Source: a virus
Taxonomy: Duplodnaviria > Caudoviricetes
DNA length: 64,000 nucleotides
Virus record (IMG/VR): IMGVR_UViG_2711768659_000002
Span: 6,897-70,896 of that record
Strand: one strand, 5' to 3'
Shown: piece by piece, positions 6,371 to 17,624 of the stretch
Position numbering within the stretch: the stretch's first letter is position 1
Layout: the number at the start of each line of letters is the position of its first letter
Program-made: the position numbers and the translations under genes
Notes under the pieces: generated by a model
Told to the model about the DNA's origin: nothing
The model's input: the letters and a program-made list of their open reading frames with translations, nothing else
The model's database searches: none

Positions 6371-6908
6371 GACACTTGGTATAATGGCTGCTCTTGAAAT
6401 AGCATACCCTAGATTTTATGCCAATAAGACAAAGGACGAAAAGGATGCTGCAATTAATCTATGGTCAAAACTGTTTAAGTCTGATGATGCCAAAATAGTC
6501 ACTGAAGCCGTAAATGCCATGATATGCACTCTTGAGTTCCCGCCAACTATTGCAGATATTAAAAAGAAAATAGCCTTATTGACACAGCCTAAAACCTCCA
6601 CTGAGTTAGAGGCTTGGAATAAAGTTTGGAAAGCTATCCAAGACGCTAATTACAGAGCACAGGAATATTTTGATAGCTTCCCACCACAAATTCAGCAGCT
6701 AGTTGGCAGCCCAGGACAGCTTAGAGAATGGGCATTAATGGACAGCAAGGTTATAAACAGTGTAATACAGTCAAATTTCATGCGAAGTTATAAATCAAAA
6801 ATCGAGCAAGACAAAGAATATTCGATGCTTCCGGAATCTGCGAAAAAACTTATAGCTGACCTTAGTCAGAAAATGTTGATGGATGGTGGGCAGGATGCTA
6901 AGGCCTGA
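6357..6908 (+). CDS. Replisome organiser / helicase loader-inhibitor (SPP1 G39P-like)
   Basis: AYPRF..INLW..LF..D..V.EAV..I..LEFPPTIADI pattern directly after the initiator. Confidence 0.7.
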   Translation: MNKSETLGIMAALEIAYPRFYANKTKDEKDAAINLWSKLFKSDDAKIVTEAVNAMICTLEFPPTIADIKKKIALLTQPKTSTELEAWNKVWKAIQDANYRAQEYFDSFPPQIQQLVGSPGQLREWALMDSKVINSVIQSNFMRSYKSKIEQDKEYSMLPESAKKLIADLSQKMLMDGGQDAKA

Positions 6909-7094: not shown

Positions 7095-7448
7095 ATGGAC
7101 ACGAATTTGATTATAGAGCTTGAAACACTGAAAGGCCGATTGCGGAAGGCTGAAGAATACGAACGTACCAAATATATGACTGATACTCCTGAGAATAGGG
7201 ACAGGGCTGAAAAAGCCTTTCAGGAAGTTATAAAGAGAATGGACGAGATTTGGGAGCAATTGCGTCTGGTTGTTGAGCTTAATGCCAACAAGACCGTGGA
7301 ACAATGGGAACAAGATATACGGGCCTATGCCGGAAGGTTTATGGCTCCAGGGAAGATTATTGTTTACAGAAAGAGTGAGAGGATATTTGTCCGTCTGGAA
7401 CCGCCGGAGTTCTGGAAGGACCCTGTAACAAAAATTATTAATGAGTGA
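7095..7448 (+). CDS. Hypothetical phage protein
   Basis: GAGGTGA RBS; coupled to next gene. Confidence 0.65.
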   Translation: MDTNLIIELETLKGRLRKAEEYERTKYMTDTPENRDRAEKAFQEVIKRMDEIWEQLRLVVELNANKTVEQWEQDIRAYAGRFMAPGKIIVYRKSERIFVRLEPPEFWKDPVTKIINE

Positions 7449-8573
7449 GGTCGCAAATGACACCAGATGAATTTAGGCAAAAACAGAGCTTGCCAACACC
7501 GGCTAAATTTGTGCATGCAGAGATAAAAGCCTATGAATACCGTGATTGGGCAGAAGCTCATGGTTATAACATTTGCGTGAGCATAGGCGGGCTGGATAGC
7601 TTAACGCTTTATTACTTCTTAAAATCCTTAAATATTGATGTAGTTCCGGTATCAGTATCAAGCCTTGAAGATAAAAGTATTCAAAAAATTCATGAGCAAA
7701 TACCTGGAATCCAGATATTAAAACCATATAAAAGCAAAGTTGAAGTCATTGAAGAATTTGGATTTCCTGTTATTAGTAAAGCTAAAGCTCGCAAAATAGA
7801 AAACCTGCAAAAGCCGAATAACCCAAAACAAACTTTTATCCATGCAATAATGACCGGGGATATGGGTGAGCAAGGAAAGTTCCAGCATAGCAACAAAATA
7901 AAACTTCCTGATAAGTGGATTCAATTATTCGGAGGATTATATGCTGAACACAGACCGGAAATACCTTGGGAATATGCGCAATGCAAAGGTTGCGCACCGT
8001 TCAATGTTTCTCCTGAATGTTGCAAATGGATGAAAGAGAAGCCTTGCGAGGACTGGCAAAAGGCTAATAATATGATTCCTTACCTCGGGCTTGGCATCTG
8101 AGGGAGGGCAAAGAGAGCTTGGTTTAACCAAGAATGGATGCAATTATTACAGTGACACAACTATCCGAAGTTGCCCATTTGCTATATTTCAGAGACAAGA
8201 CTTATTGCAGTTAGCAATCAATCTAAAAGTACCGGTTCCAAAGATTTACGGAGAAATCGCAATAGATCGCAATGGTCATTTAAGAACTACCCGGGCACAA
8301 AGAACTGGATGTCAGATGTGTGGTTTTGGTATTCACATGGAAAAGCGACCTCATAGGTTTGATAGGCTTCGACAGGACAATTTTAAAGAATGGGAATTCT
8401 GGATGTACAGGTGCGCTACTGACCAAGTAACTGGTGAAAAGTTCGGATGGGGTAGGGTTTTAGATTATATCGGAGTGAAATGGGAGGATGAATATATTGA
8501 ATATGAGCAAACAAGCCTATTTGACTATTACCCAGATGAGCCGGACTTTGACCCGGATATAGATGAGGAGTGA
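7445..8573 (+). pseudogene. PAPS-reductase-like (PP-loop) protein split by a frameshift near 8092
   Basis: SIGGLDS PP-loop in 7445-8101; C-terminal half (SEGGQRE, RSCPF, RTGCQMCGFG) in another frame 8091-8573; CTT-G-GCA-TCT-GAG appears to lack AT of an expected LMASEGG. Confidence 0.8.
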
Positions 8574-8577
8574 TTAA

Positions 8578-10635
8578 GTGAATTTAACAGATAAAGAAAT
8601 GAAGTTGTACGTCGCGGCATTTTGCTGTGGAGCGGGCGGTCAGACACTTGGCCTTAAGCAATCCCAAAACGAATACAAGGGCATTGCAGGTGGATTTGAG
8701 ATGTTGGCCGGGTATGACAATGACCCGACAGTTATTAAGAATTATGAACGTATAACCGGGAGCAAAGGAATATGCGCCGACCTTTTTACCCGAGAGCAAT
8801 TCGTATTATTCCATGGTGAAGAACCTGGACCTGAGTGGGAAGAGCTGACTGCCGCCAAAGTCCGGGAGCAATGTGGAAAAACTCCGGATGTGGTGGTAAT
8901 GTCCCCTCCATGCAAAGGATTTAGCCGTTTACTTCAGCTACCTGAAAGAGTATTTGACCTGGTTCTTGAGGCATGGTTCGATGACCTACCAGCTATCCTG
9001 CTAATGGAAAATGTTCCTGGAATCAGAGATAAAGGACGTGGGATTGAAACCTTGAAAAAGATAAAACGCAAGCTTGCGTTACGCGGATATGTTTTTCATG
9101 AGGATTTGTACGATTGCGGTGATTGGGGAGGACTCGGGCAACATAGGGTGCGATACCTGCTAATAGCGCGATTACCTGACAAGGTTCCTGACTTTGTATT
9201 CCAGCCTCCGAAACTGCCACTCAAATCCATAGGTGATATTCTTGGTCCGTTGCCTATGCCGGGGGATATGGAAAAGGGCGGTAAAATGCACCGAATCCCA
9301 AACCTTGCATGGAGAACATGGGAACGCCTAGCTCTCATACCGGCCGGAAAGGATTGGAGAGCTCTTGAGAATTTTGGTAGAGATCAATGGAAAGGTGCAT
9401 GGAGAATAGTTCCCTGGGACGAGCCTTCAAATGCAGTCACATCATCAACAAAGGGAGTTGGACAATCAACAGGCGTTTCGGCTGTAGCAGACCCAAGGAT
9501 TGAATTTGTTCAGGGATATGGCAATAAATACAGGGTAGTTTCGGCAGATGAACCAAGTCCAACAGTAACCGGAAGTAGATTAGGCAGTGGAGCCCCAATT
9601 TATGCTGACCCGAATATCCAGAGATTTGCTGAAAGCTTCGGTACGGATTTGTTAGGTGAAATTGAAGATAACGATATAGAACCCGAAAGCATTGGTCCAA
9701 AGGTGCCAAAGTTCGCCGCCAATTCAAGTAAAGTACAGTCATGGGACGAGCCTTCTGGAACCGTAATTGGTGGGGCAGGTGTATCAAATGGTGCTTTGAA
9801 CGTGGCGGACCCACGAATCGAACATCCAACATGGCGCAGGACACAGATAAGAAAAGTGCAGGAATGGGATAAGCCGTCTGGTACGATTACAGGCTCGTCA
9901 AATCCAAGTGGAGCAGGTTCTGGAATCATTGCAGACCCAAGACTGAAATGCGATGCCAGACCAGGAGCATACGGTGTACAAAACTGGGATGATACATCAG
10001 TTACATTGACTTCAAGTATGGATGTTCACAATTTCCCTGCCGCTGTATCCGACCCGAGGTTGAATGAAAGGAATGGACGATATCCAGGTACATATAAAGT
10101 TATTCCCTGGGAGGAACCGTCAACGACAGTCATTGGCCAGACAGATATTCAAAGTGGCGCTCTCAATGTGGCAGATCCACGGAAATGGTCCGGGGCTGGA
10201 AACTACGGCGTAATGGATTGGGGTGAACCAGCAAAGACGGTTACAGCCAGCGGAGATATTCATGCCGGAGCAGCTGCTGTAGCTGACCCGAGGATTCCAG
10301 AACCAGATGATAGAGGTATCTACATAATCATTGCAGCAGATGGCACCTGGCACAGACCAATAACGACTTATGAAATGGCTATGTTGCAGGGATTCCCTAG
10401 GACCATGAGGGACGGCACTCCTTTTGAGCTCATTGATTGCAGCGACGGCAAGGCACGTGAGTATATCGGCAATGCAGTTCCTGTTCAGACAGCAACAGCT
10501 ATAGGGAATGCGCTACTTCAGACGCTTATGCCAAACATGCTGGGTGATGTTCATTGGGGATTCTCCAATTTGAAAATATGGGTAAAAAATAAGTTTGATG
10601 AGGTCAGGAGGTACTTTGATGAAGATAGCAATTGA
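8578..10635 (+). CDS. DNA cytosine-C5 methyltransferase with seven internal W-D-E-P...ADPR repeats
   Basis: Motif I FCCGAGG, catalytic SPPCKGFS, ENVPG, Q.R.R motif VIII, C-terminal LQGFP and IGNAVP. Confidence 0.92.
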   Translation: MNLTDKEMKLYVAAFCCGAGGQTLGLKQSQNEYKGIAGGFEMLAGYDNDPTVIKNYERITGSKGICADLFTREQFVLFHGEEPGPEWEELTAAKVREQCGKTPDVVVMSPPCKGFSRLLQLPERVFDLVLEAWFDDLPAILLMENVPGIRDKGRGIETLKKIKRKLALRGYVFHEDLYDCGDWGGLGQHRVRYLLIARLPDKVPDFVFQPPKLPLKSIGDILGPLPMPGDMEKGGKMHRIPNLAWRTWERLALIPAGKDWRALENFGRDQWKGAWRIVPWDEPSNAVTSSTKGVGQSTGVSAVADPRIEFVQGYGNKYRVVSADEPSPTVTGSRLGSGAPIYADPNIQRFAESFGTDLLGEIEDNDIEPESIGPKVPKFAANSSKVQSWDEPSGTVIGGAGVSNGALNVADPRIEHPTWRRTQIRKVQEWDKPSGTITGSSNPSGAGSGIIADPRLKCDARPGAYGVQNWDDTSVTLTSSMDVHNFPAAVSDPRLNERNGRYPGTYKVIPWEEPSTTVIGQTDIQSGALNVADPRKWSGAGNYGVMDWGEPAKTVTASGDIHAGAAAVADPRIPEPDDRGIYIIIAADGTWHRPITTYEMAMLQGFPRTMRDGTPFELIDCSDGKAREYIGNAVPVQTATAIGNALLQTLMPNMLGDVHWGFSNLKIWVKNKFDEVRRYFDEDSN

Positions 10636-11725
10636 TAAAGGCGAGCTCGTAAAAGCTTTAGATATAGTTTTGAAAGTGGCACCAGTAGGAAAGGTTAATA
10701 CGCAGATTCTTGAGGGGGTTTTGCTCGAGTCGGCTGACAATGGGAAACTTCATTTGACATGCAATAACCTCGAAACGGCGATAAAATTAACGGTTGAATG
10801 TGAAATTATTGAGCCGGGCAATGTAGTTGTTAATTCAAAGCTATTTAGTGAAATCATAAAAAAGATGCCTGATGAAGAAATAGACATTCTTACAAACGAT
10901 AGGGAAATGAATATTGAAGCAGGTAAGACCGTCATGAAACTTCCAATTCTTAAGGGTGAATATCCAGGAATGCAAACAATAACTGAAAAAGGCAGAATGG
11001 TAATAAGTAAATCAATTTTTTCAGAATTAATCAGTAAGGTTGCATTTACGGTATATGACGGTGAGGAAAAGCCAGTATATTCAGGAATAAAAATTGATAT
11101 TTTGGGCGGGAGGATAAATGTCATCGCGACTGATACTTATACTTTTGCCTTACAGCGGAGAAGCATGAATGCACCGGATATAAGTACACTGTTGAACGGG
11201 AAATCTCTTGAAGGTATGTCCAAGGTGTTGTCTGGCGAAGAAAACATATCCTTGTCAATTGGTGAAAATATGGCTGTTCTGTATACAGACAACATCCAAG
11301 CAAATATCAGAACGGTTGAAGGTAGCTTTTTAGATTACAAAAGATGGATATCTATTGCACATGAAACACAAGTAAGCGTAGATAGAAAAAGCATAATGAA
11401 ATCGTTAGAAAGAGCTGCGTTAGTGCTCGAAACTGGCGCAAAGGGGTCGGTGGTCAATGCATTGGAGGTCAGTTCAAATACGGGTGGCTTAACATTGAAA
11501 AGCTCTGGGCAAAAAGGCTCCTTTGATGAAAAAATCCCTGGAGATATAAAGGGTAGTGACTTTAAAAAAATTGGCATTGACCCTCGAAGAGTCATGGATT
11601 GCCTGAAATGCATTGACGACAAAGAAGTGATTTTAAATTTCTCTGGAGAGCAAACACCGTTATTTATAACTCCGGTGGAAGGGGATGATTACATCTACAT
11701 CATTCCGCTTGTCCGGACTAGGTAG
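10619..11725 (+). CDS. dnaN: DNA polymerase III beta sliding clamp (phage-encoded)
   Basis: ILEGVLLE..L.LTCNNLE, GNVVVNSKLFSEIIKK, IATD..FAL, C-terminal YIIPLVR; about 368 aa. Confidence 0.9.
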   Translation: MKIAIDKGELVKALDIVLKVAPVGKVNTQILEGVLLESADNGKLHLTCNNLETAIKLTVECEIIEPGNVVVNSKLFSEIIKKMPDEEIDILTNDREMNIEAGKTVMKLPILKGEYPGMQTITEKGRMVISKSIFSELISKVAFTVYDGEEKPVYSGIKIDILGGRINVIATDTYTFALQRRSMNAPDISTLLNGKSLEGMSKVLSGEENISLSIGENMAVLYTDNIQANIRTVEGSFLDYKRWISIAHETQVSVDRKSIMKSLERAALVLETGAKGSVVNALEVSSNTGGLTLKSSGQKGSFDEKIPGDIKGSDFKKIGIDPRRVMDCLKCIDDKEVILNFSGEQTPLFITPVEGDDYIYIIPLVRTR

Positions 11726-11734
11726 GTGTAACCA

Positions 11735-14254
11735 ATGGGATACTTAGCATTTTTAAAGCGAAAGATGGACATTGCTCCTGAGACCGGGTTTGATATTGAT
11801 ATCTCCGAGGTGAATCCTGCTTTAAAGCCACATCAGAGAACAGCAGTTGTCTGGGGGATAAAGGGCGGCAGACGAGCGATATTCAAATCTTGGGGACTTG
11901 GAAAAACAATAGTTAACCTGGAGATATGCCGGATTATTCAAAAGCATAAAGGCGGCAAGGCACTGATAGTTTTGCCGCTCGGGGTAAAGCAGGAGTTCTT
12001 AAGGGACGCAGTTCGGATTCTCGGGATGGAGCCACCACAATACGTCCGCAATATGGCTGAAATATATGCAACAACTACGGATATTCTCCTTACAAACTAT
12101 GAGCGTGTAAGGGATGGAGATATAGACCCGACATACTTTACAGTTTGTACACTCGACGAAGCAGCCGTATTGAGAAGTTACGGCAGCGATACATATCAGA
12201 CGTTCATGATAAAGTTCAAGGGGGTGAAGTATAAGTTTGCGTTTACTGCCACACCCTCTCCGAACAGGCTAAAAGAGCTTATACATTACGCTGCTTTTTT
12301 GGAGATTATGGATTCAGGGCAGGCCTTAACAAGATTCTTCCAAAGAGACTCAACCAAAGCAAATAACCTCACTCTATATCCCCACCACGAGGACGAATTC
12401 TGGCTTTGGTGCAGCTCATGGGCTTTATGGATAACACAGCCTTCAGACTTGGGTCCCGAATATTCTGACGAAGGATACGACCTGCCACCATTGGAGGTCA
12501 GATATCATGAGATACAGGTAGACCGGGAATTGTATGTAACAGACCGAGATGGCAGGATGAAAATTCAGGATGATGAGGTTGTCTCCTTGCCTGATGCTAT
12601 GAAGGAAAAGCGCAGGAGCATTGATGAGAGAGTCGTAAAGATGGCTGAAATAGTCAATGAGAACCCAGACGACCATTTCATTTTGTGGCACGACCTGGAG
12701 GATGAGCGGAAAGCTATCAAGAAAGCCCTTCCTGATATGGTTGATATTTATGGCAGCCAAGATTATGAGATCCGTGAGCAGAGAGTTATTGACTTCTCAG
12801 ATGGCAAATTCAGGCTGTTTGGCACGAAAAAGGAACTAAGTGGGAGTGGTTGCAATTTTCAGCGGCATTGCCACCGGGAGGTATTCTTAGGTATTGATTA
12901 TGAATTTGAAGATTTCATTCAAGCAATTCACAGGGTCCTTCGTTTCTTGCAAACAGAAAAAGTTATTATCGATATTATACACACCAGCCGAGAGCGCAGA
13001 ATCCTTCAGGTACTGCTGAAAAAGTGGGAACTGCACAAATACCAGGTCAAGAGGATGACGGATATCATTAAGAAATACGGGTTATCCAGCACATCAATGA
13101 TGGAGAAGATGTCTAGGACAATGGGGGTAAAAAGGGTGGAAGTAAAGGGAAAGAACTTTACAGCGGTAAACAACGATTGCATTCTGGAGTTCGAAAGATT
13201 GCCTGATAATTATTTTGATCTGCTGCACACTAGCATACCGTTCGGGAATCACTATGAATATTCAGCCAGTTACAATGATTTTGGATTCAATCCGGACACT
13301 GAGGCATTCTTAGAACAGATGGACTACCTTTCCCCAAACCTTCTCAGAACACTTAAGCCTGGCCGTGTATTTGCCTGCCACGTTAAGGACCGTGTGTTGT
13401 TTGGTAATACAACAGGTGATGGATTCCCCACAATGGAACCATTTCATGCTCTATGCATACAGCACTATATGAAACATGGTTTTAGGTATTTCGGGATGAT
13501 AACAGTAGTTACTGATGTCGTCCGGGAAAATAACCAGACCTACCGCCTTGGATGGAGCGAATGCTGCAAGGACGGAACGAAGATGGGAGTCGGCTGCCCT
13601 GAGTACATATTGCTATTCAGGAAGCTGCCGAGCGATACCAGCAACGCATACGCAGATGTTCCAGTTGTAAAATCTAAGGAAGAATATACCCGGGCACAGT
13701 GGCAAATTGATGCTCATGCCCTTTGGAGATCATCTGGAAATAGGTTATTAACTAAGAAAGAATTATTAGATATCTCGGTGAACAAACTTCAAGCTGCATA
13801 TACAAAGTATTCTCGTGAGACAGTTTACAGTTATGCTGAGCATGTTGAAATATCGAAAAAACTTGATGAAGATGGAAAGCTTCCTGGGAGTTTCATGGTC
13901 GTGGCGCCGGGTAGCTGGACAGACCAAGTTTGGGATGATATCTTACGCTTTAAGACTTTGAATGCGAAACAGACTCAAAAACGTTTACAGAACCATGTAT
14001 GCCCGATTCAGATAGATATTCCCGAAAGAATCATCAACAGATATACCAATCCGGGCGAATTGGTAGGAGACCCTTTCGGGGGACTAATGACAATTCCAAA
14101 CGTAGCATTGGATTTAGGGCGTAAAGGCTGGGGGTGTGAACTAGCTTCGAACTACTTCCGGGATGGAGTAGGCTACCTGCAGGCGGCAGATGCAGATGTA
14201 AGAGTTCCGTCGTTATTTGATTTCTTTGGAGAGGAAATGGAGGACCTGGGATGA
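11735..14254 (+). CDS. SNF2-like helicase fused to N4/N6 amino-DNA methyltransferase
   Basis: WGLGKT, LDEAA, TATPSPN, QAIHRVLRF helicase motifs; HTSIPF, GELVGDPFGGLMT methyltransferase motifs. Confidence 0.88.
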   Translation: MGYLAFLKRKMDIAPETGFDIDISEVNPALKPHQRTAVVWGIKGGRRAIFKSWGLGKTIVNLEICRIIQKHKGGKALIVLPLGVKQEFLRDAVRILGMEPPQYVRNMAEIYATTTDILLTNYERVRDGDIDPTYFTVCTLDEAAVLRSYGSDTYQTFMIKFKGVKYKFAFTATPSPNRLKELIHYAAFLEIMDSGQALTRFFQRDSTKANNLTLYPHHEDEFWLWCSSWALWITQPSDLGPEYSDEGYDLPPLEVRYHEIQVDRELYVTDRDGRMKIQDDEVVSLPDAMKEKRRSIDERVVKMAEIVNENPDDHFILWHDLEDERKAIKKALPDMVDIYGSQDYEIREQRVIDFSDGKFRLFGTKKELSGSGCNFQRHCHREVFLGIDYEFEDFIQAIHRVLRFLQTEKVIIDIIHTSRERRILQVLLKKWELHKYQVKRMTDIIKKYGLSSTSMMEKMSRTMGVKRVEVKGKNFTAVNNDCILEFERLPDNYFDLLHTSIPFGNHYEYSASYNDFGFNPDTEAFLEQMDYLSPNLLRTLKPGRVFACHVKDRVLFGNTTGDGFPTMEPFHALCIQHYMKHGFRYFGMITVVTDVVRENNQTYRLGWSECCKDGTKMGVGCPEYILLFRKLPSDTSNAYADVPVVKSKEEYTRAQWQIDAHALWRSSGNRLLTKKELLDISVNKLQAAYTKYSRETVYSYAEHVEISKKLDEDGKLPGSFMVVAPGSWTDQVWDDILRFKTLNAKQTQKRLQNHVCPIQIDIPERIINRYTNPGELVGDPFGGLMTIPNVALDLGRKGWGCELASNYFRDGVGYLQAADADVRVPSLFDFFGEEMEDLG

Positions 14255-14568
14255 ATGAAGCGCTAAAGGCTATACAAACTCTAAAACAGTTAACTCTCTG
14301 TGGAAATTGCGCTACCGGGGCAGATAAGGAAGGCGGCTGCACTGCTTGTGACAGAATGATAGCTAAATACCAGGCTATTAAGGCCCTTGAAAAACAGATA
14401 TCAAAGAAAGTTATTACCGAATTAATGACAGATTATAACGAATGTGTCAGGGGCCCGTCTTATGAAATATATAAATGCCCTGACTGTATGAAACACATAT
14501 ATGACATAGGTGCTGAATTTTGCGGCAGTTGTGGCAAAAGTCTGGATTGGGGTGATTCTGATGAATGA
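14251..14568 (+). CDS. Hypothetical protein with Zn-ribbons (CPDC...CGSCGKSLDW)
   Basis: Coupled ORF; typical phage Zn-finger C-terminus. Confidence 0.65.
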   Translation: MNEALKAIQTLKQLTLCGNCATGADKEGGCTACDRMIAKYQAIKALEKQISKKVITELMTDYNECVRGPSYEIYKCPDCMKHIYDIGAEFCGSCGKSLDWGDSDE

Positions 14569-14841
14569 AATAGAAAAGACTATCGATTACTGCAAAGGTC
14601 ACATCAAATCCCTTGAAGAAAAGCAGAAGCGGGAACAAGGATGCAAGTATTGTAAAGTACCCTACAAAGATATCATTGACATAATTTTGGGCGAATCAGT
14701 AAACGGGGAAGAAGTTCATTTATTTATAAATACAGATGGTCAAAATCTTAGGCTATATGATAATTTACCGGATAACCCTAAAACCGATACATTAAAATTG
14801 GCTACTGTCCAATGTGCGGAAGGAGGCTAAGTCATGAGTGA
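14561..14841 (+). pseudogene. Small Zn-finger protein (ends YCPMCGRRL) with apparent 1-bp frameshift near 14790
   Basis: The typical tail IKIGYCPMCGRRLSHE* lies in another frame from 14791 and would end with an ATGAGTGA overlap into the next gene. Confidence 0.6.
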
Positions 14842-15028
14842 GCCGGAAGAAAAATGTTGTTACATCTGCGAGAATTACATTGCCTTTCACGGAACAGCAG
14901 GTACATGCAAAATAAAACCCAAGGCAATATTGGTAGACGCTTTGGATATATGTCAGGATTTTAAAGAGTATGGCCGGAAGCAAATCCCGGGTAAGGAGGA
15001 GGCAAACCATGAGAGTACTACTAATTGA
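14834..15028 (+). CDS. Hypothetical Cys-rich small protein
   Basis: GGAGG RBS; CCYICENY...C...C. Confidence 0.55.
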   Translation: MSEPEEKCCYICENYIAFHGTAGTCKIKPKAILVDALDICQDFKEYGRKQIPGKEEANHESTTN

Positions 15029-16013
15029 TGTAGATGGGAAGCTACCAAATCTTGCATTGATGAAGCTCTCAACCTGGCACAAATCCCTTGGCGATGAAGT
15101 ATTCCTGAATGAATGCATCAATCCGGATAAAGTCTACATATCAGTCTTGTTTACATGGAATAGATCAAAAGTCGAAAAAATTATGCTGCTTTACCCGAAT
15201 GCAGAGATTGAAGTCGGCGGCACCGGTTGGGATATTCACAAAACACTTCCGGCAGAAATCGAAGCTTACAAGCCCGACTATAATTTATACAAAGTATCCG
15301 ATATCCTGCCAAGAATTAAAGGCGGTATTGCTACCAAGGAAAGCAAAATTAAAAAGGCTGAGACGATTGTTAATGCTGGCATGGGATTTACTTCCCGGGG
15401 ATGTATCCGAAACTGCGGATTCTGCTTTGTACCGCCAAAGGAAGGTAAATTTCATAGAGTAGGAGAGATTCAAGACCTTATCAATCCAAAGTCAAATGTA
15501 ATTATTCTACTGGACAATAACTTGACTGCCGACCCAGATTGTATAGAAAAGCTGCACGAAATACGGGACAGAGGGCTTGTTGTGGACATTACACAAGGAA
15601 TTGACGTAAGGTTGGTAACACCAGGAATTGCACATGCATTGAGCGAGGTTAAGCATCTTCGAAGTATACATTATGCCTGGGACTTGATGCCATTTGAAAG
15701 ACAGGTATTTGAAGGGATAAAGATACTTTCAGAGCATGTCAAACTGTATAAGCACATCTGCATGATGTTAACCGGATATGATACCACTTTTGAAGAGGAT
15801 ATGTATAGATTCAGAAAACTTATTGAGCAAGGAGTTAAGCCTTATGTAATGCCCTACAACAAAGCATACCCGACAGTAAAACATCAGTGTTTTGCAGGTT
15901 GGGTAAACAGCAGAAAGCATACAGTATGCAGTTTTGAAGAGTTTGAACCATGGGTAAAGTCACAAAACAAAAATCAATTGAACTTATTTGAAGGAGCGTG
16001 GGCGGATGGATAG
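15009..16013 (+). CDS. Radical SAM protein
   Basis: TSRGCIRNCGFCFVP (CxxxCxxC), LLDNN; N-terminal PNLALMKLS resembles truncated B12-binding-type domains. Confidence 0.85.
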   Translation: MRVLLIDVDGKLPNLALMKLSTWHKSLGDEVFLNECINPDKVYISVLFTWNRSKVEKIMLLYPNAEIEVGGTGWDIHKTLPAEIEAYKPDYNLYKVSDILPRIKGGIATKESKIKKAETIVNAGMGFTSRGCIRNCGFCFVPPKEGKFHRVGEIQDLINPKSNVIILLDNNLTADPDCIEKLHEIRDRGLVVDITQGIDVRLVTPGIAHALSEVKHLRSIHYAWDLMPFERQVFEGIKILSEHVKLYKHICMMLTGYDTTFEEDMYRFRKLIEQGVKPYVMPYNKAYPTVKHQCFAGWVNSRKHTVCSFEEFEPWVKSQNKNQLNLFEGAWADG

Positions 16014-17147: not shown

Positions 17148-17624
17148 ATGAATAAAGGTGCAATCATAGACGAAACAGGAAAATACAGATACTTGCTCTG
17201 GCGAATATGGGACGAAACAAAGCCATTAGCAGTGTTCATTATGCTGAATCCCTCCACGGCTGATGCAGAGGAGGATGACCCGACAATACGCCGCTGTATG
17301 AATTATGCCCGGAGTTGGGGTTACGGCGGGATAAAGGTTGTAAATCTCTTTGCATACCGGGCTACAAATCCGAAAGAATTGACCAAGGTTATTGACCCCG
17401 TTGGACCTGAAAACCATGGTCATGTTATTAAGGCAATTAATGGGGCTGAGATTGTTATAGCAGCTTGGGGAACTAAAGGAAACTACATGAGTATGCAGAG
17501 CAGTATTATCCAATTGCTAAAGACAACTCCAAAGTTACACTATTTGGGTATTACAAAGGATGGTTATCCAAAGCACCCTTTGTATCTTAAAGCAGATTTG
17601 AAGCCGGTTAAGTGGGCGATATAA
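17148..17624 (+). CDS. DUF1643 family protein
   Basis: YRYLLWRIW, FIMLNPSTAD..DDPTIRRC, VNLFA, AWG, GYPKHPLY. Confidence 0.88.
   Translation: MNKGAIIDETGKYRYLLWRIWDETKPLAVFIMLNPSTADAEEDDPTIRRCMNYARSWGYGGIKVVNLFAYRATNPKELTKVIDPVGPENHGHVIKAINGAEIVIAAWGTKGNYMSMQSSIIQLLKTTPKLHYLGITKDGYPKHPLYLKADLKPVKWAI

Follow-up and report, generated by a model that had tools for sequence, protein, structure and literature searches.

The question raised by this locus is why three unrelated enzymes, encoded together with a phage sliding clamp, should each carry a C-terminal peptide of the type with which bacterial proteins bind such clamps. The locus lies in a 64,000-nucleotide (nt) stretch of viral DNA, called the window in what follows (IMG/VR record IMGVR_UViG_2711768659_000002, positions 6,897 to 70,896; Duplodnaviria, Caudoviricetes). 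It is a block of DNA-modification genes forming part of the early (replication) operon of a Ruminiclostridium prophage. The block encodes, in order on the plus strand, a 3'-phosphoadenosine 5'-phosphosulfate (PAPS)-reductase-like PP-loop protein, a C5 methyltransferase, a beta-clamp, an SNF2-N6/N4 methyltransferase fusion (the helicase-methylase) and a radical S-adenosylmethionine (SAM) enzyme. The reading that we favour, with moderate confidence, is that the tails of three of these proteins dock onto sliding clamps and would so bring modification to nascent phage DNA. The genes and motifs concerned are as follows.

7457..8573, plus strand: PAPS-reductase-like PP-loop gene; phrog_424 is matched in two consecutive pieces
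8508..8522, plus strand: QTSLF motif in the tail of the PP-loop protein, reading QTSLFD
8578..10635, plus strand: C5 cytosine DNA methyltransferase, 685 amino acids (aa); PF00145 (E 6e-23, 82 bits against a cut-off of 22) and phrog_116
10619..11725, plus strand: phage beta sliding clamp (DnaN); PF00712, PF02767 and PF02768, and TIGR00663 (185 bits against a cut-off of 137.65)
11735..14254, plus strand: SNF2-type ATPase fused to an N6/N4 DNA methyltransferase, 839 aa; PF00176, PF01555 and phrog_16 (E 1e-110)
14204..14224, plus strand: VPSLFDF motif in the tail of the helicase-methylase
15009..16013, plus strand: radical SAM enzyme, 334 aa, with a Rossmann-like, B12-domain-like N-terminus ahead of the radical SAM core; CIRNCGFC; phrog_9298 (E 1e-72)
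15975..15989, plus strand: QLNLF motif in the tail of the radical SAM enzyme, reading QLNLFE

An earlier sequence-only reading of the window had placed the three motifs at these positions, which agree on translation, and had proposed their conservation among homologues as a check. In each of the three families the result is strongly positive. For the radical SAM and PP-loop enzymes, the final 20 residues of 120 homologues each were searched with the strict pattern Q[LMIV][STDN][LMFI][FLIM], and composition-preserving shuffles of the tails served as the control. Radical SAM tails give 68 matches against a mean of 0.29 in shuffled tails and PP-loop tails 33 against a mean of 0.26; the observed and shuffled counts for 120 helicase-methylases are 111 and 0.6. 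The motif is conserved, with the shuffle control included, while the linker before it varies. Among unrelated open reading frames (ORFs) of the same phage loci, 5 of 1229 meet the strict pattern (0.4%; range 0.4-0.7%). Within the 64 kb of the window, the only ORFs of at least 100 aa with such a motif in the last 25 residues are those of the PP-loop protein, the helicase-methylase and the radical SAM enzyme.

In the radical SAM family (120 homologues at 61-100% identity), tails read ...EPWVKAQ, then 5-12 variable residues, then Q-[LMIV]-[S/T]-[LMFI]-[FILV], which is the very end of the protein in 58. A looser Q-x-x-h-h is found in 89 of the 120, and the motif is present in 23 of the 25 viral contigs that encode the enzyme. 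The AlphaFold2 (AF2) model has a predicted local distance difference test score (pLDDT) of 91.2, falling from 66 to 50 along the tail. Motif and fold place the enzyme in the radical SAM superfamily: the CxxxCxxC motif is present as CIRNCGFC, its three cysteines are invariant, and the core fold is matched with a probability of 1.0. The Pfam model PF04055 scores 26.5 bits, under its cut-off of 29.5. The top Foldseek matches are MtaB, MgmA, TsrM and MiaB, and the fold also resembles the methylthiotransferase RimO and the cobalamin-type enzymes TokK and OxsB. PF02310 was not matched in the Pfam scan, and the only invariant cysteines are C132, C136, C139 and C251, with none conserved in residues 1-120. 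Neither NCBIfam nor the ESM Atlas yielded a name for its function. The enzyme belongs to phrog_9298, and its relatives in cultured phages are distant and uncharacterised. A fixed partner gene was sought for the enzyme and rejected, as its neighbours vary (HNH, ParB-like, VRR-NUC, sigma factors, NA37, DUF5131).

The PP-loop protein presents a complication. The sequence-only reading had included a PAPS-reductase-like enzyme with QTSLF at its C-terminus; gene and motif are both present, but the gene is not intact here. It is split into two ORFs (7445-8101 and 8091-8573) by a 2-nt deletion at about 8092/8093, where a DNA alignment with two otherwise 98%-identical relatives has CT--TGG against CTTATGG. 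Across the break, the nearest intact homologue (P0397, 372 aa, 91% identical) has the sequence ...YLGLMASEGGQRE; relatives of the L112 and L125 type also have an intact PP-loop gene. The broken gene is either a frameshifted pseudogene or the product of an assembly error. In the AF2 model of P0397 (pLDDT 89.8), the best PDB matches are PAPS and adenosine 5'-phosphosulfate (APS) reductases, with a probability of 1.0. The protein has the adenine-nucleotide alpha-hydrolase fold with a PP-loop of the SGGxDS type: SxGGLDS is conserved, and S42, G44, G45 and S48 are invariant. PF01507 gives no hit on the window-type protein, even when intact. The family also has conserved cysteine pairs, including a C-x-x-C near the C-terminus.

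Full-length PP-loop homologues (120 were compared) end in ...GWGRVLDYIGVxWE, a variable linker and then Q-x-[S/T]-[LMFI]-[F/E/...], for example EQLSLF, QMSLFG, QISLFDF or QLSFF. The looser Q-x-x-h-h (here Q-x-x-[LMFIV]-x) is present in 99 of the 120, following linkers that vary in both length and sequence. Along the tail the pLDDT of the P0397 model falls from 67 to 42, the rest being confident. Both this model and that of the radical SAM enzyme have a mean pLDDT of about 90, and the low scores along the two tails predict disorder there, as would be expected of a docking peptide. Downstream of the motif, the window protein has an acidic tail, ...PDFDPDIDEE, which closes two different PAPS-reductase-like families (the 372-aa and the approximately 430-aa types) and is found in all six clamp-bearing phages with a PAPS-like gene (window 8529-8573, L112, L125, L116, L126 and L006). 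At the DNA level this tail hardly differs from phage to phage, and the next gene has its ribosome-binding site in the final codons, GAGGAG. For both of these reasons the tail may be a mosaic junction; it could also be a second docking peptide.

In the helicase-methylases, both activities are recognised in one polypeptide (PF01555 at 55 bits against a cut-off of 26.7; PF00176 at 25.9 against 24.9), and homologues in cultured phages are annotated as DNA helicase/methylase. The family has x-P-[TS]-L-F-D-[FLY] in 118 of 120 homologues and an LFD-type motif (QPSLFD, NISLFD or NLCLFD) in all 70 complete copies from 71 viral loci. Some subclades have the glutamine, as QPSLF or QPTLF. In cultured phages of five bacterial phyla, among them phages of Mycobacterium, Arthrobacter, Flavobacterium, Pseudanabaena and Pseudomonas, the form is [MV]P[STD]LF[DA], with tails such as MPSLFDLED, VPTLFDLL, VPTLFDTV and MPDLFALLE. 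The Arthrobacter phage Anekin (L197, PQ362682.1, 1166-6182) has a neighbourhood similar to that of the block, with the gene order helicase/methylase, helix-turn-helix protein, beta sliding clamp, hypothetical protein and DNA methyltransferase; its helicase/methylase ends in ...MPSLFDLEDLADAS, and its clamp has a canonical pocket.

The published beta-clamp motif is Q-phi-x-[L/M]-[F/L] or Q-phi-x-[L/M]-x-[F/L] (PMC11139829). QLNLF fits this definition, QTSLF has threonine at position 2, and VPSLF is without the glutamine. According to the same source, glutamine is helpful but not essential, the LF pair can bind alone, and exceptions are found in delta (AMSLF) and MutL (QPLLI) (PMC11139829). The motifs also match those of the host's own clamp clients, two DinB homologues with QLSLFE and a MutS with QLDLFE, to be compared with QLNLFE in the radical SAM tail and QTSLFD in that of the PP-loop protein. 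One DinB gene is in the window; the second and MutS are elsewhere in the host genome. The sequence-only reading had listed DinB with QLSLF alongside the enzymes of the block. The motif is there, but the gene belongs to the host, lying on the minus strand at the right end of the window rather than in the block.

~62756 to beyond 64000, minus strand: DinB-like Y-family polymerase of the host; QLSLFE stands some 60 residues from the C-terminus

If the tails bind a clamp, the next question is which one. The phage clamp is 29% identical to the host DnaN. It was found in nine syntenic phages (the window, L001, L006, L079, L112, L116, L124, L125 and L126), always in the order C5 methylase, clamp, helicase-methylase. 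Its start lies 17 nt ahead of the C5 methylase stop (window 10619-10635), with the same overlap in relatives, which suggests that translation of the clamp is coupled to that of a methylase without a clamp-type tail. The C5 methyltransferase itself is unusually long (655 to 739 aa among relatives) and contains repeated W-D-E-P-S...ADPR modules (window 9400-10293). The clamp is rare. No close relatives (E <= 1e-60) were found in 400 genomes of the class, a search of viral contigs with the clamp alone gave no match, and a search with the clamp alignment returned only three known relatives and four distant clamps.

The motifs do not follow this distribution. No phage dnaN is found nearby, within the DNA fetched, at 69 of the 71 helicase-methylase loci or at 23 of the 25 radical SAM loci. 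At one locus, L128, a 133-aa ORF takes the clamp's place and there is no phage clamp, yet the tails read QISLF and TPTLFDY. The idea that the motif is tied to a phage dnaN was therefore rejected, as the motifs are equally conserved at loci without one. The tails thus do not depend on a clamp from the phage, and their usual platform is probably the clamp of the host. The proposal in the sequence-only reading that the phage's own clamp delivers the enzymes survives in part, in that the motifs are conserved and the clamp lies between the methylases, but the equal conservation of the motifs where phage dnaN is missing speaks against its more specific claim.

A short extension follows the radical SAM motif in clamp-bearing phages (EGAWADG, EGGWA, EGSWA or EGSWT; seen in the window at 15990-16013 and in L116, L124, L125, L006, L001 and L126), whereas in phages without a clamp the protein mostly ends with the motif. 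As a marker of clamp phages an EG-x-W extension is only partly true, since P0014 has LFEGGL, with no clamp gene in the 12.3 kb of contig read, and the relationship is confounded by ancestry.

The peptide-binding pocket of the clamp was compared with that of the Escherichia coli DnaN by mapping the residues listed in a recent review (PMC11139829) on an alignment (R152, R176, L177, N320, Y323 and R365). The host clamp and 66 cellular Clostridia clamps keep these residues (R152 in 61 of 66, R176 in 66 of 66, N320 in 64 of 66 and Y/F323 in 63 of 66, with L177 and R365 also kept). All nine phage clamps have K152, M/T176, V/M/F177, an aromatic residue at 247, D320 and R/K323. The phage clade thus lacks the canonical pocket, R365 being the only listed residue retained, and the window copy is the most divergent of the nine (Y155, T174, T176, F177 and W247). 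Four other phage-borne clamps, including that of Anekin, have a canonical pocket. Among the phage clamps, leaving out the window copy, the pocket is better conserved than the rest of the protein (majority fraction 0.92 against 0.80), which points to a working binding site. The pocket is therefore probably functional, judging from these alignments, but chemically changed, above all in the glutamine subsite. Such a change leaves room for an orthogonal platform, and equally for a clamp with another purpose.

The sequence pattern is well supported, and from it we infer clamp binding, the identity of the clamp and the action of the radical SAM and PP-loop enzymes on DNA. According to the model favoured here, the C-terminal tails would insert into the peptide pocket of those clamps that stay behind on freshly replicated DNA. 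Docking would concentrate the enzymes on nascent phage DNA and allow its modification ahead of any encounter with host nucleases. Most phages with these enzymes encode no clamp and would have to rely on the host clamp as their platform. The pocket of the host clamp is conserved across bacteria (PMC11139829), which would make it a natural general partner. In the clade of the window, the phage's own clamp may provide additional platforms on phage DNA, or it may be a platform that is partly private. By family, both methylases are ordinary enzymes; for the radical SAM and PP-loop enzymes, the clamp-type tails argue that they too act on DNA.

Several observations weigh against this model. The phage clamp is altered at the residues that hold the glutamine in E. 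coli (N320D and Y323R, plus R176M/T), and it may be unable to bind canonical motifs. The glutamine is itself absent from most helicase-methylase motifs, which have proline at position 2, and in the closest 120 homologues the motif stands at a fixed distance of 8 residues from the last conserved helix. It could be a structural element or serve docking to another partner, and the fixed spacing makes the clamp reading less secure for this enzyme. The C5 methylase has no clamp-type tail, its C-termini reading ...RRYFDExxN in nine relatives. In the PP-loop protein, position 2 of the motif is threonine rather than an aliphatic residue, one subgroup has Q-x-[ST]-M-E with no terminal hydrophobic residue, and the gene is frameshifted in this prophage. 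Finally, only 7 of 141 distant radical SAM relatives have the motif, in a family of 3388 representatives. The tail is thus a clade-specific acquisition, a mode of gain that is usual for short linear motifs.

The alternative closest to the earlier proposal is that the phage clamp is a dedicated platform: the phage would load its own clamp, and the tails would be adapted to it rather than to the host clamp, which would make it a private tool-belt for DNA modification. We consider this rather unlikely. It would account for the fixed position of the clamp gene between two methylase genes, with its start overlapping the C5 methylase end, and for the non-canonical pocket shared by all nine phage clamps, when cellular Clostridia clamps are canonical and other phage-borne clamps keep the canonical residues. 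The tails of clamp-bearing phages also have features of their own, as the helicase-methylase ends uniformly in VP[ST]L[FL]DFFG and the radical SAM motif has its EG-x-W-type extension. However, these variants are inseparable from shared ancestry, as the LFEGGL of P0014 illustrates, and the same motifs are kept in the great majority of relatives without a phage clamp. No clamp loader is encoded in the block, so that loading would still need the host, and the absence of close clamp relatives (E <= 1e-60) from the 400 genomes indicates that the clamp is an accessory rather than a core component. A more elaborate version can be imagined, in which the remodelled clamp (K152, M176, D320, R323) is an orthogonal tool-belt that prefers phage tails and ignores host polymerases and repair proteins. 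The two methylases, the radical SAM enzyme and the PP-loop enzyme would then use it as a private, replication-coupled platform and jointly install a modification beyond m5C, m6A and m4C. This version is speculative, and the odds are well against it.

It may instead be that the tails are real motifs or structural elements whose partner is something other than a sliding clamp, either a different hub of the replisome or nucleoid or part of the enzyme itself, and that the phage clamp, independently of the modification enzymes, serves replication or interferes with host clients. The helicase-methylase lends this idea some weight, since its motif is without glutamine and its proline and aspartate are invariant (118 of 118) at fixed spacing, a constraint that exceeds the need of known clamp motifs (PMC11139829). 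A replication role for the clamp would also be natural in an operon that encodes DnaD-like, G39P-like loader, SSB and RecT proteins. What makes the explanation improbable is the close and often exact agreement of the radical SAM and PP-loop tails with the consensus and with host clients (QLSLF, QLNLF, QMSLF). We know of no other bacterial hub that reads Q-L-x-L-F, and three unrelated DNA enzymes with LF[DE]-type tails beside a clamp gene are hard to explain otherwise. That the three motifs are chance matches, a fair suspicion while each protein was represented by one sequence and the pentapeptide pattern was short and degenerate, has next to no probability left in view of the conservation counts, the low background among unrelated ORFs and the restriction of the motif to three ORFs of the window. 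The preferred reading remains that the tails dock sliding clamps, in most phages that of the host.

The wider setting of the block is that of a prophage replication region. The host is a Ruminiclostridium; its chromosomal DnaN (contig 39 of its genome, 7761-8855, minus strand) is 95-96% identical to that of R. cellobioparum. Two further features complete the operon as it concerns us here.

1-26 kb of the window, plus strand: early/replication operon, including a YqaJ exonuclease, RecT, a DnaD-like initiator and a G39P-like helicase loader
14251..14568, plus strand: small zinc-ribbon protein, 105 aa, with weak zinc-ribbon Pfam hits and a match to phrog_10714 (E 3e-10)

The genes of the block are tightly packed, with ends that overlap or abut, and two small ORFs separate the SNF2-methyltransferase fusion from the radical SAM gene. 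No promoter- or terminator-like sites above shuffle expectation were found in the block. Given this packing and the lack of such sites, co-transcription is plausible; the sequence-only reading had described the five genes as co-transcribed, and all five are indeed present on the plus strand. Downstream are genes for a 3D-domain protein, a DUF1643 protein, an SNF2 helicase, a single-stranded DNA-binding protein (SSB) and an ASCH protein. No near-identical DNA was found among GenBank phages.

Genes for DUF5131 (Gp37/Gp68) and DUF1643 proteins recur beside the radical SAM gene or in its place (L112 17910-19195; L125 11782-13058; L002, L003, L006 and L024; window 17148-17624); L112 has DUF5131 but no radical SAM gene. 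Genes of the Mom family (PF25680) share early operons with the radical SAM gene (L116 15620-16072; L129 6647-7153) and point to further DNA-modification functions in those phages. In addition, a few unrelated phage ORFs in fetched loci (L001-L101) end in perfect clamp-type pentapeptides, ...SQMSLF, ...EQLSLF and ...GQVSLL, and may represent further clamp clients among phage proteins.

If the tails do bind DnaN, phages would couple protective DNA modification to replication, much as DNMT1 does with PCNA. Two large uncharacterised families, the radical SAM enzymes of phrog_9298 and the PP-loop proteins of phrog_424, would be placed firmly on DNA, and other phage enzymes that act on DNA could be sought simply by their tails. 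With its changed pocket, the clamp would in addition be a natural test case for the evolution of clamp-client specificity. The idea is directly testable, since the helicase-methylase motif is carried by cultured, tractable phages such as Mycobacterium phage BigPhil and Arthrobacter phage Anekin.

In bacteria, polymerases and repair proteins are known to use sliding clamps as tool-belts. Clients of the beta-clamp (Pol II, Pol IV/DinB, Pol V, MutS, MutL, Hda and delta) carry the same type of short motif in a disordered terminal tail; here, the candidate cargo would consist of DNA-modifying enzymes and not of polymerases or repair proteins. A 2024 review of beta-clamp partners has no DNA-modification enzymes among the clients, and the word methyltransferase does not occur in it (PMC11139829). 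Literature searches turned up no description of DNA methyltransferases, radical SAM enzymes or PAPS-like enzymes that bind the clamp in bacteria or phages.

For the enzymes themselves, the nearest known systems differ in instructive ways. The PP-loop/PAPS-reductase fold with conserved C-terminal cysteines is shared with DndC (DNA phosphorothioation) and BREX type 4 proteins, and DNA is the presumed substrate here as well. Unlike those proteins, the phage PP-loop enzyme has no PF01507 match and has a clamp-type tail. DndC works with DndA, DndD and DndE, encoded alongside it; the annotated genes in and around the block include no recognisable dnd or brx partner, although no search aimed at them was made. 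The radical SAM enzyme has the architecture of class B radical SAM methylases and of MiaB, RimO and MtaB, with a Rossmann-like N-terminal domain followed by the radical SAM core. At 334 aa it is much shorter than these, is 10-19% identical to them and has a clamp-type tail. The three-cysteine auxiliary [4Fe-4S] site and the TRAM domain of MiaB, RimO and MtaB are absent, and the protein ends soon after the core.

An experimentally validated precedent for a phage protein on a host clamp is MuC of phage Mu, which binds the E. coli clamp via QHDLF and a C-terminal QPDLF and couples a phage function to replication, in a study of MuC/Mor that also argued from family-wide conservation of the motif (PMC12867686). 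The QPDLF of MuC has proline at position 2, as do the QPSLF and MPTLF of helicase-methylases. MuC activates transcription and Mu encodes no clamp, whereas here the cargo would be modification enzymes and the clade encodes a clamp. In DNMT1, a PCNA-binding motif leads to efficient methylation of newly replicated DNA (PMC9690074); the clamp in that case is PCNA, the motif is a PCNA-interacting protein (PIP) box with no homology to the phage tails, and the purpose is maintenance methylation rather than protection of phage DNA. The gp45 protein of phage T4 is a phage clamp that acts as a tool-belt for gp43, gp33 and gp55 via C-terminal hydrophobic motifs such as LDFL (PMC9690074). It is trimeric and has its own loader and polymerase, whereas the clamp described here is a DnaN homologue, with no phage loader or polymerase seen in the block. 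The mechanism proposed would thus be the known clamp tool-belt with new cargo, for which MuC, gp33 and gp55 on gp45, and DNMT1 on PCNA are the precedents.

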